The notes under the pieces: model-generated
What the model saw: the letters and a program-made list of their open reading frames with translations, nothing else
What the model was told of the DNA's origin: nothing
Databases searched by the model: none
Made by a program: the position numbers and the translations under genes
Shown here: positions 2,241 to 8,301 of the stretch, piece by piece
How positions within the stretch are numbered: position 1 is the stretch's first letter
Layout of the letters: every line of letters begins with the position of its first letter
Assembly (NCBI GenBank): GCA_963774325.1
Contig: CAVZEF010000002.1
Coordinates: 108 to 64,107, forward strand
Direction: 5' to 3'
DNA: 64,000 bases
Origin: an uncultured Pseudomonadota bacterium
Lineage (GTDB): Bacteria; Myxococcota_A; Polyangia; Fen-1088

Positions 2241-2585
2241 TCAAGCCGCGACGACGACGGTGTCGTTCGCGGGCGCGGTGCGCGAGGGATCGGGCATGCC
2301 GCGGAGCAACGCCGCGAACTGCGTCGCGCCCAGCTTGCGCACGATCTTGAGCGGCCGGTCGCGCAGGCGCGCCTCGCGCCGGGCGGCGCGCACGGCGTTG
2401 TGACTGTTGATCTCCGTGATGATGACGACCAGCTGCGATCGCGCCACCAGCGAGCGGAGCGCCAACGACGACGCAGGCCCTGCCATGACGCCGGTGTGAA
2501 ATCCGACCTCATGCCCCTGCGTCTCCGCCAGCGTCTGCAGCGCGGCCACGTTCCGGTCCAATCCGCCGATCACTCCGATGCGCAT
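2241..2585 (-). CDS. DUF2325-like small protein
   Basis: Intact 114-aa ORF (MRIGVIGGLDR...LVVIITEINSHNAVRAARREA...). The layout matches my memory of DUF2325. An AT-rich TATATAA box at 2625-2631, about 40 nt upstream of the ATG, is a possible -10 element. Confidence 0.5.
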   Translation of the reverse strand: MRIGVIGGLDRNVAALQTLAETQGHEVGFHTGVMAGPASSLALRSLVARSQLVVIITEINSHNAVRAARREARLRDRPLKIVRKLGATQFAALLRGMPDPSRTAPANDTVVVAA

Positions 2586-2699: not shown

Positions 2700-5158
2700 T
2701 CAGATCTGCAGGCCGAGCAGCAAGCCCGGGTAGTGCCGCACCGTCGTCGTGCCGCTCTTCGAGACGCTCTGCAGGAAGCCGCTACCGATGTCGAGATCCT
2801 TCCCGTCCCAGGCGATGGTCGCGTTGTCGGAGATGCCGGCGATGGCGGAGAGGCCGGGGATGATCTGGAAGCCCGCCACGGCGCGCATCGACGCCCACAG
2901 CGGCGTGTTGTCGTAGTGAGAGAAATCCGACACGATGCTCATCGCGCTGGCTTCGATGGCCAGGAAGCGCAGCGGACCGAAGCTGACGGGCTGTCGGTAG
3001 CCGATGCCCAGGCCGGAGCCGATGCGGCGCGTGCTGCGGTGGAACTGATCGGGGCCGGCGCCGGTGACGAGCGCGTCGCCCGGCTGGTAGGCGAAAGTGT
3101 ACGAGGTGTACACGTGGCGGCTGCCGAGCTGGAGCTCGAAGTTGGAGAGCATGGTGTCGGTCGCGTATACCGCGACGCTGTGGATGCCGTTGCCGATGAC
3201 GTTCAACAGTCCGAGCGTGTCGCCGTCGTGCGCGCCGGCGATGTTGACCACGCCCAGCTTGAATCCGCGGCTGTGCTTGGCGACGTTGGCGACGCCAAGC
3301 TGCACGCCGTTCTGATCGCCCGCGACGTTGACCACGCCCAGCTGGGCGCCGTTCGACACCGAAGCGATGTTGAGCGGGGCCAGCTGCGCACCCGAGATCT
3401 CCCCGGCCAGGTTGGCGCCGCCGGCCAGCTGCGCGCCGTTCCAGCGGCCGAGGGTCAGGTTCAGGCCGCCCGCGAGCTGCGCGCCGCGACCGCCGCCGCG
3501 GGCGAAGTTGACGCCGGCGCCGAGCTGCGCGCCGTACGTGTCGCCGTCGACCCAGTTGACGCCCGCGGCGAGCTGCGCGCCGTGGAAGTCGCCGAGCACG
3601 ACGTTGGCGCCCGAGGTCAGCTGCGAGCCGCGGAACGCTTCGGTCGCGAGGTTGGCGCCGACCGCGAGCTGCGCGCCGCGCCCCGGACCGCGCAGCAGGT
3701 TGGCTCCGACGGTGAGCTGCGTGCCGTACATGAACTGATCGGCGATGTTCGCGCCGAGGGACAGCTGCAGTCCCGACGACAGGCCGCCGACGCGGTCCGC
3801 AAGGAAGCTGAACGAGAGGCCGTGGACGTCGACCTGCGAGTCGCCCGGCATGGGGACCAGACCCGAGGTGCACCGGGACCGCGCGTAGGGGGGTGCGAAG
3901 TGGCGCCAGCGGCGGTGAGGCGGCGGTGGCGGTGACGCTGGTGTCGGGCGCGGGGGCGTCGCCGCGCGTGGCGACGACCTCGAGAGGGCGGCCCGGGTGG
4001 AACGCGAGGCGAGCGAGCTCGGCGCGCTGGCCGAGCGCGAGCGTTGACGTTGGCTTCGAACACGGTGTTGCCGCCGCCGTCCATGGTGACGAGGTAGGGG
4101 CCGGCTTCGAGGCCGAGCTCGATGCCGTGGCCACCCATCTTGCGCAGCTCGACGACCAGGTTGCCGGCGGCGTCGCGCACGCCGATGCGGCCCGAGAGGT
4201 CGGAGGCGAGCGCCAGCGTCGCCTGTGTCGAGCGGACGTCGGTGACCACCAGGTCGGATGTGCCGACGAGGTCGAATTCGTAGGCGGCGTGCTGGGGACC
4301 ACCCTGGGTCTTCTCGGTGCGCGCGAGGGTCTCTTGCGCCGCGAACTCGAAGGCCTCCTGGAGGGTGACGCGGCGGTCGCGGTTGACGTCGGCGGCGCCG
4401 CGCAGGCCCGAAACCAGGTAGTGGGTGAAGAACGAGGCGCCGATGCGATCCGATTCCTGGGCGACTTCGTTGATGGCGCTCGAGGCGAGGTAGGCGTGGC
4501 CCTTGGTGTCGGCCGAGGAGTCCATCAGGAAGGGCGCGCGGCGCACGCCGCCCTTGCGACGCGTGAAGGCCCCGGAGGCGCAGGAGTCGAGGATCGCCAG
4601 GCGGACCTCGGCGGGGATGGCCTGGATGCGGGTGCGGAGCTCGTCGTAGCTGACGCGGTCGTTACCGATGAGCAGGCCGTCTTCGTCGGAGTGTCCAGAA
4701 TAGTAGATGACAACCTCGCGGCGGACCCCGGCGCGCTGGCCCGCGGCCACCAGGCGGCCCAGGCGGTCGAACGCGCCCAGGAACGCGAGGCGGGTCGCGT
4801 CGGAGACGAACACGACGTCGTCGGGGGCGACGCCGCCCAGGCTCTCGAGCACGCGGCTCATCGCGTGCGCGTCCGAGGTTGCGTAGCGCAGCTGCGGGCG
4901 GGTCGGGCCGCCGTCGTTGAAGCCGGCCATGAGCGCGAACCGCCGCAGCCGGACTCCGTCGATGGTGGCGGTCGGAGCGGTGGGGGTGGCGGCGAACGCG
5001 CCGCTCGGCAGGAGCGCGCCGGCGACCGCCAGCGCGATCCCAAGAAGGGCTGCCAGCTTCGCCGCTCGCAAGGCCTGCCCTCTCCCCGACCCTCCCCCGC
5101 AGACGGGAGAGGCAGAAAGAAAGGAAAGGCGGCGGGCGATTCTGCGACGAGAGGTCAT
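2700..5158 (-). pseudogene. caspase-family (peptidase C14) protein fused to a Gly-x-Gln-Leu repeat domain and a C-terminal beta-rich domain; two frame changes
   Basis: ORF 3617..5158 carries a signal/TM segment (LAALLGIALAVAGALL) and the C14 His/Cys dyad motifs (VVIYYSGHS, LAILDSCASG). Natural-looking sequence continues from ~4045 in the frame of ORF 2782..4302 (TLALGQRAELARLAFHPGRPLEVV...) and from ~3880 in ORF 2700..3851. The span is 2459 nt (3n+2). ATG 5158 overlaps the anti-sigma stop (ATGA). It could instead be two genes if a stop codon was lost. Confidence 0.7.
3207..3773 (-). repeat. about 12 tandem 14-16-aa coding repeats (G-[AST]-Q-L-x-x-G-x-N...) inside the caspase-linked ORF
   Basis: The protein reads GAQLAVGANLATEAFR / GSQLTSGANVVLGDFH / GAQLAAGVNWVDGDTY / GAQLGAGVNFARGGGR / GAQLAGGLNLTLGRWN and so on, shortening to 14-aa units (GAQLGVVNVAGDQN). 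On the + strand the DNA shows a recurring ...agctgcgcgcc... every 42-48 nt. Confidence 0.75.
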
Positions 5159-6042
5159 GGATTTCCCTTGCTGGTCTTCTGCAACAAGACCGACGTCTGA
5201 TGAAAGGCGGGCAACATCGGAAGTGGGGCCGTGCGGGCGCTCGGCCCTCGTCCGGCGAGAGAGCGCGCGGCATCGAGCGCCGCCGCGACGGGAAATGGTT
5301 GGGTCGAGGTGATGAGCACGAAGCGTTCGAAGCCGGGAGCGTCGTCGAGCTCGTAGGCCGACGGCAGATGGATCTCGTGGGGCGAGCGCAAGGAGGCCGC
5401 GGCGCTGGCGCCCGGCTCGGGCAAGTGCTGGGTCACGCGGCCGGCGCCGTCGATCGACAGCAGCACGCCGTAGCGCCCATCGCGCCCACCGGCATAGGCC
5501 AGCTGCAGCAGATCGCCGCGTGCGGCGCGCGCGCCGTCGCTCAGCCGCTCCGGCTGCTCCTGATTTGCCACCGTCCGCTGCCGGTACACCCAGAGCCGCG
5601 GCGACACCGACGGTTCACTCCCCTTGAAGTTGACATGCTCTTCCGGCTCGCCGCCGCCCGGCTGAGCCACGGCGGTCGAACCACCTTGATGAGACGGCGA
5701 CACCCCGTGCCCCGACCGCAACAACAAGAGGCCGATCCCCAGCGAGCCCGCGAGCGCCAGCGGCGCGATCCATAAGTTGACGCTCCGGCGCTGCGACGGC
5801 GTCTCCGCGGGGCGCGACGCGCGCCGGCGAATCTCCGCCATCGTCCGATCCTTGTCGACCTGGGAGTGGATCTCCTGGTTCGACGTCGTCAGCGCCGCAA
5901 GCTCGGTCTCGAGCGACCGGCCCTCGGCTGCCAGACGCGTTCGGAGCTCGTCGACCTGGGAGGCAGCCAGCTCGCCTTGTGCCGCGCGCTCCAGCAACCA
6001 GGTCGGGACTTTCTTCGATGCATCGTCGTGCGTTGAGCTCAT
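5155..6042 (-). CDS. putative anti-sigma factor (single-pass membrane protein)
   Basis: Intact 295-aa ORF. ATG 6042 overlaps the sigma stop (ATGA) and its own stop overlaps the caspase ATG. It has a cytoplasmic N-domain, one TM helix (LWIAPLALAGSLGIGLLLL) and a periplasmic domain (RLWVYRQR...YGVLLSIDGAGRV...FERFVLITS). That domain is tentatively reminiscent of the DUF4384-type domain often found with caspases. Confidence 0.5.
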   Translation of the reverse strand: MSSTHDDASKKVPTWLLERAAQGELAASQVDELRTRLAAEGRSLETELAALTTSNQEIHSQVDKDRTMAEIRRRASRPAETPSQRRSVNLWIAPLALAGSLGIGLLLLRSGHGVSPSHQGGSTAVAQPGGGEPEEHVNFKGSEPSVSPRLWVYRQRTVANQEQPERLSDGARAARGDLLQLAYAGGRDGRYGVLLSIDGAGRVTQHLPEPGASAAASLRSPHEIHLPSAYELDDAPGFERFVLITSTQPFPVAAALDAARSLAGRGPSARTAPLPMLPAFHQTSVLLQKTSKGNP

Positions 6043-6576
6043 GTTGGTACAGCTCCTTCCAACTGCGTGAGGCGGGCGCGCGCGGTGCGCAGGCGCTTGC
6101 GGACGCCCGAGACCGACAGACCCGCCTCGCGGGCGACCTCTTCCAGGGTCATTCCATCGACCAGATGCATGACCGCGATGGTCTGCGTGCTCGCCGCCAG
6201 CGGGTCATCCGTGCGGAAGAGCTTGGCGAGCAGATCGCGCGCCAGCGTGCGCCCATCGCCCTCGGTGTCCGAGGTTCCGGCGATCTGCCAGAATTCGCTC
6301 GTCGTCGGCGTCTTCGGGCCGGCGCCGTTCCGTGCGCAGGCGGTTCAGGCAGACGTTGGTGGCGACGCGCAGGAGCAGCGCCGCGGGTGCCTCGTCCTGG
6401 AGGCGGTCTTGATGGCGCAGCAGGGCCACGAAGACGTCCTGCATCGCGTCCTGCGCCTTCGCGTCATTGCGCAACAGCGCCCGACAACGCCTCAGGACCA
6501 TTGGGCCATACCTCTGGTAGAAGCCTTCGATATCGACTGGCACGTTTGGATTGCCTCCCGCATGTCCAGGGAACAC
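6039..6576 (-). pseudogene. ECF (group IV) sigma-70 factor, one frame change near 6300
   Basis: Region 2 (DAMQDVFVALL..., LLLRVATNVCLNRLR) lies in ORF 6205..6576. The next frame then reads EFWQIAGTSDTEGDGRTLARDLLAKLF...VMHLVDGMTLEEVAREAGLSVSGVRKRLRTARARL (region 4 HTH) to TGA 6039-6041. The span is 538 nt (3n+1). The start codon is uncertain (6576 or ~6543). Confidence 0.75.
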
Positions 6577-6660
6577 CGGCTGCGGTCGGATCTGTCACCG
6601 GGGAAGCGCAGATTGCACGATTTTCGAGAGGTCCGTCACGGGTAGGCCTCTCGGGGCCGT

Positions 6661-6784
6661 CGGCTCCCCCGTAGGCTCCCCCGCAGGCGTCGGCGTCGGC
6701 GTCGGCGTCCGAAGAAGGCGCGAGGTCTGATCGCCCACGCGCGACGCCGACGCCGACGGGGGAGCCGACGCCGACGCCGACGCC
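6661..6784. repeat. nested imperfect inverted repeat built from GGCGTC/GACGCC hexamers (possible terminator or REP-like element)
   Basis: cggctccccc (6661-6670) pairs with gggggagccg (6758-6767). (GGCGTC)x4 at 6686-6709 pairs with (GACGCC)x2+GACG at 6743-6758. A further (GACGCC)x3 tail lies at 6767-6784. The element sits downstream of the GH28 gene and upstream of the sigma gene, both on the - strand. There is no T-tract. Confidence 0.5.
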
Positions 6785-6812
6785 CGGAACGCTCGAGGTC
6801 AGAGGCCCGAAG

Positions 6813-8301
6813 TTAGAACGTGACCCAGACGTTCGTGCAGTCGCGCGGAGCGGCGGCGCCCGTGACCTGGTTATTCACGGTGACGTTGGTCGTCCCCGTG
6901 GGCACGATGTTCGTGACGGGGTTCGGACCCATGTTGAGCACGACGTTGCTGGCGTTGATGCTGCTGGGCGCGGTGTCGAGGACGACGTTGTCGAGCCACA
7001 ACGCTTCGGTGTGGACGGCATCCCAGCCGCGGAAGATCAGCTTGCCACCGGTCAGGCTGTGCACGTTGCGGATGGTGATGTCCTTGAACCAGGGAATCAG
7101 CAAGCCGGTAGCGCTGCTGTAGTAAGAATCGAAGACCAGCGGATCGCTCACGTTGCGCATGCACACGTCGGTGTAGCTGACCTGCTGGACGATACCGCCG
7201 CGGCTGGCGTCGGACTTGATGCGCAATCCGTTCTGGGCCCCGTCGATCGTCAGATCGCACACCACGACGTTCTGGACGCCGGCGTTGGTCTCGCTGCCGA
7301 TCGACATACCGTGGCCATGGCCAAAGTGGTTGTGCGCGATGACGATGTTGTTGACGGTCGGCGGCCCCGACGCCTTGATGGCGATGTTGTCGTCGCCGGT
7401 GCTGATCTTGTTGTACGCGATGATGCCGTTTGTCGACGCCGACGGGTCGACGCCGTCGGTGTTGACCGAGGTGGCAGGCGTGTTGATGGTGATGCCCCAG
7501 ACGGTGAAACCGTTGGTCCGCTCGATGACGACGTGGAACTTCGGCGCGTTCTTGAGCGTCACGCCCGAGAGCACGAAGCCGTTGCCCGGGCCGCACCCAG
7601 ACCATGCGCGGCGCGACCAGGTTTCCGTGGTCGGCGTCCTCGAGGTCCCACCAATTCAGGGTGCCCCCGATGATCAGCTCACCGCCGCGCCCGTCGAGGG
7701 TTCCGGTCCCCATCACCGCCGCGTTCTGCGAACCGAGGACGTTGATGAGCGCGTTGCAATCGCTGTTGCCGCCGGTCAAGCCGCACTTCCCGTTACCGGG
7801 CGTGCTGTCAAAATCGCGCGGGTCGCGCGAGCCAAACACCGTGACGCCGTCGTCGAGCCACAACGTCACGCCGTTCCTCAGGAACAGGCCGCCGACCAGA
7901 AACGCGACGTTGTCACCGGCGGTCACCAGGCGGACCGCTTGCCCCGCGGGACAGGCGTCGAGAGCGCTCTGGATGGCCACCGTGTCGAGAGTCGATTCGT
8001 CGGTCGGAATCCCGGTGGTCACCGTCTTGGTCGCCATCACGGTGGCGCACGTCGTGGCGGGAAGCACCGGCGCCGTGCCGATCGCGTCGCACGAGGCCGT
8101 CGGCAGCACCGGGCCCGTCGCGCCATCGGCCGCCGCGTCCGTCGTCATTCCCGCGCCCGCGCCGCCGAGGCCGGTCGAGGCGCCACCACCGGCGCCGGTG
8201 ACGATGTCGATCCCGGCGTCGTTGCCGCCCGACGGCGCCGCCCGCCAGCAGCCCGCTTGAAGCGCGACCGCGCTCGCGGCCAGCGTCAGCGCGACGCGCA
8301 A
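6813..8301 (-). pseudogene. glycoside hydrolase family 28 (polygalacturonase) lipoprotein, one frame change near 7590
   Basis: ORF 6871..8301 gives the lipoprotein signal (LTLAASAVALQAGC) and the N-terminal half. ORF 6813..7574 carries the GH28 motifs NTDGVD, GDDNIAIK, GHGMSIGSE and RIKS. The span is 3n+1. Confidence 0.8.

Follow-up and report, generated by a model that had tools for sequence, protein, structure and literature searches.

Why should the gene of a caspase sit in the operon of an alternative sigma factor? This question is raised by a locus in a 64,000-nucleotide stretch of DNA, referred to below as the window, from an uncultured bacterium of the Polyangia (GTDB lineage Myxococcota_A; Fen-1088; GenBank assembly GCA_963774325.1, contig CAVZEF010000002.1, positions 108 to 64,107), in which genes for a sigma factor of extracytoplasmic function (ECF) type, a membrane-spanning anti-sigma factor and an exported protease of the caspase family follow one another. 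Bacterial caspase homologues are abundant and, to our knowledge, almost none has a known substrate or role. The locus is a real, widespread and functionally uncharacterised module, a variant of protease-gated ECF signalling and not a new category. The answer that we tentatively favour is that it forms an autoregulated envelope module, in which a caspase tethered to the outer membrane and facing the periplasm would cut the anti-sigma factor and free the sigma factor.

A three-gene operon conserved across phyla

The operon lies on the minus strand of a genome region of about 70% G+C. Its landmarks in the list of open reading frames (ORFs) and the three-frame translation are an intact ORF of 295 aa (6042→5155), the anti-sigma gene, with the sigma gene 5' of it and a caspase-like ORF 3' of it from 5158. 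A preliminary description of this DNA had reported ATGA overlaps at both junctions, and both can be read in the sequence: CAACATGAGC at 6042-6039 for the sigma stop and anti-sigma start, and TCCATGACC at 5158-5155 for the anti-sigma stop and caspase start. The same description counted four genes, which has to be revised to three, the caspase, the repeats and the tail being one ORF of 750-830 aa in orthologues. The locus consists of three co-translated genes, whose products are the ECF sigma factor, an anti-sigma factor with a single membrane pass and an exported caspase fusion of 818 aa (the sigma factor and the fusion after removal of single extra bases discussed below). A scan for conventional sigma-70 promoters found none, and a terminator scan found one terminator-like site, inside the anti-sigma gene, which is no more than expected by chance.

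This arrangement is shared by many bacteria. The anti-sigma factor has 571 homologues, one of them 100% identical, while the caspase protein, used as a query in its conceptually joined form, has more than 2000, of which the best 120 are mostly single ORFs of about 730-850 aa; the best is 91% identical, and those homologues that have a name go by 'caspase family protein [Polyangia bacterium]'. When one genome per species was scanned, 303 relatives of the caspase protein came up, of which 80 loci were kept (given L numbers here); to all of these, hidden Markov models were applied for the sigma factor, the two halves of the anti-sigma factor and the caspase, repeat and tail regions. The sigma and anti-sigma genes are directly upstream of the caspase gene in 57 of the 69 loci with enough flank, the anti-sigma gene is always between the other two and its C-terminal domain was detected in 60 of 72 loci. 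Among the carriers are Polyangia, Nannocystis, Bradymonadia, Spirochaetota, Leptospirales and Latescibacterota; those that can be cultured include Nannocystis exedens and N. pusilla (L066, L071) and Lujinxingia. Two orthologous contigs have, in this order, intact genes for GH28, the sigma factor (153-167 aa), the anti-sigma factor (288-294 aa), the caspase protein (798-805 aa) and DUF2325, and intact orthologous operons keep the 4-nt overlaps between the three operon genes. The flanking genes vary between genomes and look ordinary (GH28, LigB, radical SAM). Three features on which the preliminary description had staked its case were confirmed: repeats are fused to the caspase in orthologues and are not a separate gene, gene order is conserved and the catalytic dyad, being invariant, was correctly identified. 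With fusion, synteny and dyad all upheld, the pairing of an ECF sigma/anti-sigma couple with an exported caspase, described as hard-wired, is real.

Twelve loci have no sigma pair upstream (L046, L049, L050, L053, L055, L058, L062, L064, L068, L074, L079 and L084). They are mostly from Myxococcaceae (Myxococcus, Pyxidicoccus, Corallococcus, Hyalangium, Citreicoccus), together with a metagenome-assembled genome (MAG), a 'Comamonas' record and a Fibrimonas MAG (L084). In L046, a TonB-dependent receptor gene and an unknown 306-aa gene are found upstream of the caspase gene instead. The 'Comamonas' record (L058, BNCN01000015.1, 'Comamonas sp. KCTC 72670') holds a Myxococcus-like copy of the caspase protein, and this genome may be mislabelled or contaminated; a single Comamonas is also the sole non-myxobacterial host of the DdvA-like anti-sigma factors discussed below (PMC11506125).

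The sigma factor and its putative promoter

Family scores for the sigma factor were taken on the frame-repaired protein, which matches Sigma70_r2 (52.4 bits; cut-off 24), Sigma70_r4_2 (26.8; 25.7) and Sigma70_ECF (21.5; 21.1) in Pfam, as well as TIGR02937 (68.4 bits; cut-off 42.9). Of the sigma regions it has 2 and 4 only, both scoring above the family cut-offs, which places it among ECF (group 4) sigma factors, as do the anti-sigma gene overlapping its stop codon by 4 nt and a conserved -35/-10-like motif upstream of it. Its closest solved structures are CnrH, RpoE and SigW. The main text of the 2021 ECF reclassification (Casas-Pastor 2021) mentions neither caspases nor DUF4384, the domain family to which we return below. 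Comparison of upstream regions places the start codon at GTG 6543; GTG 6576, the start proposed initially, falls inside the conserved -10-like element.

That element belongs to a motif, GT[GA]ACN-N16-GTGTT, which emerged from the comparative search for an ECF-type promoter suggested in the preliminary description. It is found within 170 nt upstream of the sigma gene in 50 of 56 loci, with invariant spacing, and elsewhere at only 14 sites in 584 kb of loci, both strands counted. It is a putative promoter, probably read by the operon's own sigma factor. Rearranged loci are informative in this respect. In two MAGs (L012, 1415-2100; L036, 1461-2120), the sigma gene runs opposite to the anti-sigma and caspase genes; there, the sigma gene is preceded by the full motif and the anti-sigma/caspase unit by GTAGCA-N16-GTGTT, which differs at one base and keeps the spacing. 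In the Fibrimonas MAG L084 (Fibrobacterota), the motif is directly upstream of the caspase gene. Since the motif stands directly before the caspase gene where the sigma gene is absent or inverted, the caspase gene appears to be a direct transcriptional target.

Nannocystis, some of the Spirochaetota and one further lineage (L051, L066, L070 and L072, at ~1405-1510 on the minus strand; L045, L048 and L054; L040) have a second, divergent copy of the motif beside the sigma promoter, and this copy points to the gene of an exported protein. In Nannocystis, this is a lipoprotein of 444 aa that has copper type II monooxygenase-like domains and a CxxCH motif, and in Spirochaetota an exported beta-rich protein of ~190 aa. 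The genes faced by these divergent copies are probably lineage-specific members of the regulon. In the window, a conserved box, CGAAAATCG(T/G)GCAA, lies ~14 nt upstream of the -35-like element (6613-6626, minus strand); it is common to the close relatives L001, L002 and L005, is not found in more distant loci and may be a second regulatory site.

The anti-sigma factor

The anti-sigma factor was aligned with 66 orthologues (46-83% identical). At its N-terminus, AlphaFold2 predicts helices at residues 14-21, 27-39, 44-61 and 64-76, with a predicted local distance difference test (pLDDT) of ~90, and W15, E18, A21, E24 and L25 are invariant among the 66 sequences. The H-x3-C-x2-C zinc motif of ZAS class I was not found, residues 1-80 containing no Cys, and there is no match to zf-HC2 in Pfam, so that the proposal of a sigma-binding role comes from position and fold. 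The Arg-rich segment that precedes the membrane helix argues for a C-terminal domain located outside the cytoplasm.

Between the helix and this domain is a linker for which the predicted structure has a pLDDT of <50 (residues 98-138). Around Lys140, which is invariant in the alignment and followed by a nearly invariant Gly, the linker is otherwise variable. The conserved C-terminal domain is predicted to be a beta-sandwich, which the preliminary description had tentatively likened to DUF4384. This likeness stands in part. On the positive side, PF14326 (DUF4384) aligns with residues 175-249, it is the only family matched by the orthologues (25 of 66 at E<=0.01; best E 8.3e-6) and several orthologues carry a precomputed PF14326 match; on the negative side, the window's protein, at 22.4 bits (E 1.3e-4), stays below the gathering score of 27. 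The domain is unrelated to the domains of its neighbour that were compared with it, since hhalign gives a probability of 0.2% that it is related to the middle beta-sandwich of the caspase protein, and the caspase and tail domains of that protein gave the same negative outcome.

The caspase protein: head, stalk and tail

The model is that of the 91%-identical orthologue, P0001. The preliminary description of an exported caspase with an intact His/Cys dyad proved correct: the Peptidase_C14 match in Pfam reaches 39.5 bits (cut-off 21.4), and the dyad (His156/Cys193) is invariant in 82 homologues. In structure space, Foldseek returns MALT1 (caspase-Ig3), fungal metacaspases, Yca1, caspase-6, caspase-7 and legumain (best E 2.5e-5), while a sequence profile finds metacaspase-1 and metacaspase-4 as its only solved relatives. 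The match to caspase-Ig3 of MALT1 is also in keeping with the beta-sandwich modelled after the caspase domain. Alignment with metacaspases pairs LRYAxSDA with LRGCxNDA and DSCASG with DSCHSG, and both Asp positions are kept; the Asp of N-D-A/V and that of D-S-C are the residues that we take to form the Arg/Lys-specific S1 pocket of metacaspases. From its sequence, the caspase thus looks specific for Arg or Lys at P1. Identity with the EACC1-associated caspase type (NF047832) was considered and rejected, the score of 63.1 bits being far below the cut-off of 140. Past the catalytic Cys, residues 185-208 of P0001 (~4480-4550 in the window) form a conserved loop of low confidence, FTRxKGGVRRAPFLxD, in which K188 and R193 are invariant; lying at the position of the intersubunit linker of caspases, it may be an autoprocessing site.

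The C-terminal half of the protein is a module of its own. The preliminary description of about 12 repeats and a ~170-aa beta-rich tail holds up well, the repeat register giving 13 G-x-Q-L units (nine of 16 aa, with units of 15 and 14 aa after them) and a further, degenerate one, and the tail ~161 aa. In the model, each repeat forms two short strands, suggestive of a solenoid, and repeats and tail together make up ~400 residues of beta structure (pLDDT 94-98). The repeats match the LA_2272 surface repeat (NF047436; 34.5 bits, cut-off 25) in two stretches; membership of the VC2662 family (NF047437) was rejected, as its 28.9 bits are far below the 140-bit cut-off. The papers found that name LA_2272 or VC2662 do so in passing, and neither has an assigned function. 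In the tail, predicted strands of 14-16 aa are joined by 2-aa turns alternating with loops of 10-20 aa. Its final motif, [YWF]P[GSA]xxxGx[QE] plus a hydrophobic residue, occurs in 115 homologues, in 109 of which it forms the very C-terminus, and 130 of 148 representatives of the wider family end in I, F, L, M, Y or V. In the model, the tail resembles an outer-membrane barrel with a beta-signal-like C-terminus, for which it is a candidate. No Pfam match to an autotransporter beta-domain (type Va, ~250-300 aa) was found in the tail or in the whole repeat ORF.

An exhaustive search for the repeat and tail module (E<=0.001) returned 4913 representative clusters at 50% identity. Among the top 148 relatives, 67 have a caspase head, and most of the others consist of repeats and tail only, many of these starting with a signal peptide; stand-alone proteins with signal peptide, repeats and tail are common. 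The LA_2272-type module appears to be a widespread envelope anchor, with or without enzymatic heads. One relative (P0314, 781 aa) has an STN and a CarbopepD_reg-like domain before the same module. Its N-terminus has the layout of a TonB-dependent transducer in which plug and barrel are replaced by the repeat/tail module. STN is the periplasmic N-terminal domain of TonB-dependent transducers, and P0314 is thus a hint that heads on this module face the periplasm.

A proposed proteolytic pathway

How might these three proteins work together? In the proposed sequence of events, (i) the repeat and tail module would anchor the caspase protein in the outer membrane with its head toward the periplasm, (ii) the head would meet the DUF4384-like domain of the anti-sigma factor there, (iii) upon an envelope signal, the caspase would cut the disordered periplasmic linker of the anti-sigma factor, with a candidate site after Lys140, (iv) this cut would be the site-1 cleavage, after which an RseP-type intramembrane protease and cytoplasmic proteases would remove the remainder and (v) the freed sigma factor would transcribe from GTGACA-N16-GTGTT, amplifying its own operon and driving the lineage-specific exported proteins. 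The signal peptide of the caspase and the Arg-rich segment of the anti-sigma factor would bring both proteins to the same compartment. Together with the known partnership of DUF4384 and caspases, the Arg/Lys pocket and the invariant Lys, this makes a site-1 protease the simplest model. Fusions of DUF4384 to orthocaspases occur in other bacteria (PMC6426788, PMC7475262), and it is the C-terminal domain of some Csx30 proteins; Csx30 binds an ECF sigma factor and is cut by the caspase-like Csx29 (10.1101/2022.08.17.504292).

The preliminary description found no match to a characterised system, which is true as far as function is concerned, although a record of such operons and two analogous systems exist. 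Sigma factors were noted in four of five metacaspase operons of Myxococcus xanthus as early as 2012, the same association being seen in Anaeromyxobacter, Haliangium, Sorangium, Ralstonia and Fibrobacter (Asplund-Samuelsson et al., 2012; PMC3501461). The gene association is the same, and the locus in the window is very probably one of those operons or a close relative. That study recorded co-occurrence only, with no anti-sigma factor, DUF4384-like domain, repeat/tail anchor, promoter or mechanism. Sigma-metacaspase operons of myxobacteria are already on record. A review also places CHAT-domain proteins near ECF54 sigma factors.

A close mechanistic analogue is DdvS/DdvA of Myxococcota, where the periplasmic caspase-fold domain fused to M. 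xanthus DdvA was proposed as a site-1 protease and dependence on RseP was shown (PMC11506125). Both systems have an ECF sigma factor, a single-pass anti-sigma factor and a caspase-fold protease with a His/Cys dyad, placed in the periplasm (here by prediction). For both, the proposal is that this protease cuts a flexible linker beside the membrane helix before RseP-type proteolysis, and both operons are autoregulated (here as suggested by the motif). Unlike in DdvA, the protease of the window is the product of a separate gene, of the C14 (metacaspase-like) rather than the CHAT type, without TPRs and with its own repeat and beta-tail anchor. The anti-sigma factor has 295 aa and only the DUF4384-like domain, instead of a TPR-CHAT fusion, and has no CHCC zinc motif. 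In the loci examined, neither the operon nor its immediate flanks contain CBASS or CRISPR genes, again unlike DdvA, and the distribution covers at least four phyla as against Myxococcota and one further record for DdvA.

In Craspase (Csx29-Csx30-Csx31-RpoE of type III-E CRISPR), too, a caspase-like protease cleaves the holder of an ECF-type sigma factor, and some Csx30 proteins end in DUF4384, the family weakly detected in the anti-sigma factor of the window (10.1101/2022.08.17.504292). That system differs in being cytoplasmic and activated by the RNA-guided Cas7-11, with a TPR-CHAT protease, whereas the one here would act in the envelope, its operon having no flanking Cas genes in the loci examined. 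As proposed, the pathway also resembles the RseA cascade (DegS, then RseP), in which, upon an envelope signal, a single-pass anti-sigma factor is cut first at site 1 in the periplasm and then at site 2, so that an ECF sigma factor is released, except that the site-1 protease would be an operon-encoded cysteine protease of the caspase fold and not a serine protease (DegS, Prc). FecA-FecR-FecI offers a parallel for an outer-membrane partner communicating with the periplasmic domain of an anti-sigma factor, although the proposed partner here is not a TonB-dependent transducer, even if one relative of its anchor module carries STN.

The most specific form of the proposal, that the caspase, held at the outer membrane and facing the periplasm, serves in trans as the dedicated site-1 protease of a DUF4384-type anti-sigma factor, and hence that this is the first caspase-driven trans-envelope pathway with separate protease and substrate, is rather doubtful. 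Were it true, (i) such a pathway would operate in Myxococcota, Spirochaetota, Latescibacterota, Fibrobacterota and Bradymonadia, (ii) bacterial metacaspase-like proteases would have a concrete function other than death, (iii) the operon would supply a neighbour-encoded candidate substrate, a candidate site at an invariant Lys and a conserved promoter as read-out and (iv) the control of ECF sigma factors by caspase-fold proteases in Craspase and DdvA would be tied to a wider, CRISPR-independent family.

Several points weigh against the proposed cleavage of the anti-sigma factor by the caspase. The link between the two proteins is one that we infer from sequence, models and analogy, and co-transcription is equally expected if the caspase is simply a regulated product. 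As 12 of 69 loci have the caspase without the sigma pair, the protease can work in another context. The outer-membrane topology of the caspase protein is a prediction, and the succession of protease head, solenoid and C-terminal beta domain also looks like that of an autotransporter displaying its head at the surface, which would put the caspase outside the cell and away from the anti-sigma factor. The tail itself gave 0 matches at E<=10 in a profile search of PDB sequences, 18 of its members gave none in Pfam (E<=10) and Foldseek on the whole model matched the caspase domain only, with nothing for repeats or tail. As for the anti-sigma factor, the invariant Lys-Gly may be merely the first structural residues of the C-terminal domain, the window's protein lies below Pfam's threshold for DUF4384 and a fold search of its model against the PDB gave nothing below E 0.04, the matches being generic Ig-like sandwiches.

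Alternative explanations

The main alternative, possible if likewise uncertain, is that the caspase is the output of the system and not part of the switch. The sigma/anti-sigma couple would sense an envelope cue through the DUF4384-like domain by some other route and induce a surface-displayed, autotransporter-like protease whose targets would be external or surface proteins, with roles such as predation, matrix remodelling or the processing of surface proteins. The architecture, in which a signal peptide and protease head are followed by a repeat stalk and a C-terminal beta domain, recalls classical autotransporters and fits this idea, as do the NCBIfam name of the repeat ('surface repeat') and the pertactin-like template (1dab) that fold recognition assigned to LA2272 in 2008 (PMC2387172). 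So do the motif directly before the caspase gene where the sigma gene is absent or inverted, which makes the caspase a transcriptional target, the exported nature of the other proteins encoded by motif-driven genes and the existence of paralogues without a sigma pair. Unlike the beta domain of classical autotransporters, however, the tail is a family of its own without Pfam or PDB relatives, it is shorter at ~161 aa than a 12-strand translocator and the STN-headed P0314 argues for periplasmic heads. An output role would also leave unexplained why the anti-sigma factor carries a domain that is otherwise fused to caspases, and why the 4-nt overlap of the anti-sigma and caspase genes is kept across phyla.

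It is unlikely that the roles are reversed, with the DUF4384-like domain of the anti-sigma factor inhibiting or docking the caspase, so that signal-induced loss of the anti-sigma factor would free both the sigma factor and a protease acting on periplasmic targets, as a cell-fate or defence switch. Dedicated inhibitors of prokaryotic caspases do exist (e.g. PCi, in the type III-B system of Haliangium; 10.1101/2023.06.23.546230), the association of caspases with DUF4384 is documented and the 4-nt overlap fits matched production of the two proteins. However, the domain has no significant similarity to protease inhibitors (best such match 3isy, E 0.16), the best matches to PADLOC defence models are only E 0.003 (14.9 bits, for the caspase) and E 0.006 (14.8 bits), with none for the anti-sigma factor, and the variable flanks are not defence islands. 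Without a meaningful PADLOC match and with ordinary flanks, the 'cell-fate or defence-like' character suggested in the preliminary description finds no support.

Frame breaks and sequence quality

The caspase gene spans three frames in the window, homologues aligning by tblastn to frame -1 (5158-~3986), then -2 (4044-~3850) and -3 (3863-2703). The sigma gene is split as well, with region 2 in one frame (the listed ORF 6576-6205, which stops early) and region 4 in another that ends at 6039. DNA alignment with two orthologous loci (L001, L002) traces these breaks to single extra bases in the window, at ~6289 in the sigma gene and at ~4046 and ~3860 in the caspase gene, with another at ~7592 in the GH28 gene; none of the four is within an obvious homopolymer run. 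When the bases at 6289, 4046 and 3860 are deleted, a 167-aa sigma factor and an 818-aa caspase protein are obtained, with no stops. The reading of the caspase through two frame changes without a stop, given in the preliminary description, is accurate as a reading, although the changes are most likely not biological, and the third extra base, in the sigma gene, had been missed.

Single-base insertions of this kind also disrupt a kinase gene (twice) and the genes of an M20 peptidase, the GH28 enzyme and a hypothetical protein in the first 12 kb. Relative to orthologous loci they lie at ~11820, 11712, 9519, 7592, 6289, 4046, 3860 and 1331/1297, that is, about one per 1.5 kb over these 12 kb, where about half of the genes are broken. 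Because the same insertions disrupt unrelated neighbours, the breaks are a property of the assembly and not of the locus, and they are most likely assembly or sequencing errors and not biology. The 3.17-Mb contig on which the 100%-identical copy of the anti-sigma gene sits suggests a long-read metagenome assembly. That the locus is a decaying pseudogene cluster, or one with programmed frameshifting, is highly improbable and was rejected: three breaks in 3.9 kb, none at an obvious homopolymer, might suggest it, but the insertions recur in unrelated genes, a plot of third-position G+C (GC3) switches frame frequently along the whole 64-kb window, the sequences outside the breaks are ~80-91% identical to orthologues with stop-free corrected frames, the orthologues are unshifted at these sites and a 3.17-Mb contig is typical of long-read metagenome assemblies. 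With about one spurious base inserted per 1.5 kb, at least over the first 12 kb, any frame change in the window is to be distrusted.

Feature coordinates and flanking genes

The coordinates of the operon and of its parts, including those that are predicted, are collected in Table 1.

Table 1. Features of the sigma/anti-sigma/caspase operon, in window positions
Feature	Positions	Strand	Remarks
Promoter-like motif GGTGACA-N15-GGTGTT (-35/-10 type)	6572..6599	-	Unique in the window; 0.04 chance matches expected
Shine-Dalgarno GGGAGG	6554..6559	-	10 nt 5' of sigma GTG; conserved in L001-L005
ECF sigma gene	6039..6543	-	167 aa after removal of extra base at ~6289
Anti-sigma gene	5155..6042	-	295 aa, intact ORF
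Putative cytoplasmic sigma-binding region of anti-sigma factor, aa 13-78	5809..6006	-	Four helices, no zinc motif
Transmembrane segment of anti-sigma factor, aa 88-108	5719..5781	-	Read from sequence and alignment; preceded by Arg-rich stretch
F-K-G-S in periplasmic linker of anti-sigma factor	5617..5628	-	Candidate cleavage site; Lys140 invariant, Gly141 nearly so
Predicted periplasmic beta-sandwich domain of anti-sigma factor, divergent DUF4384	5182..5601	-	pLDDT 85-98
Caspase-repeat-tail fusion gene	2700..5158	-	818 aa after removal of extra bases at ~4046 and ~3860
Signal peptide, aa 1-56, ...GAFA|A	4991..5158	-	Assigned by eye; homologues have equivalent hydrophobic N-termini
Peptidase C14 (caspase/metacaspase-type) domain	4268..4954	-	His156 at 4691-4693, Cys193 at 4580-4582 (repaired protein)
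Beta-sandwich after caspase, aa 300-389	3991..4261	-	Strands at 299-366 of P0001, pLDDT ~68-86
Pro/Ala-rich disordered linker, aa 390-424	3886..3990	-	pLDDT <50 at 379-404 of P0001; variable in alignment
13-14 LA_2272-type repeats of 14-16 aa, G-x-Q-L-x-x-G-x-N	3186..3882	-	pLDDT 94-98
All-beta C-terminal tail, ~161 aa, ending YPGLLLGLQI	2703..3185	-	Candidate outer-membrane barrel/anchor; pLDDT 83-97

The operon is flanked 3' by a DUF2325 gene (2241-2585, minus strand) and 5' by a GH28 (polygalacturonase-like) gene (6813-8301, minus strand). Both are neighbours in close relatives only (L001 and L002, with DUF2325 also in L005) and therefore do not belong to the conserved module. The intergenic DNA that separates the GH28 stop from the sigma promoter contains, at 6700-6790, runs of the hexamer GGCGTC and then runs of its reverse complement GACGCC, which form a long inverted repeat that is missing from the two closest orthologous loci and may be the terminator of the GH28 gene or a small repeat element.

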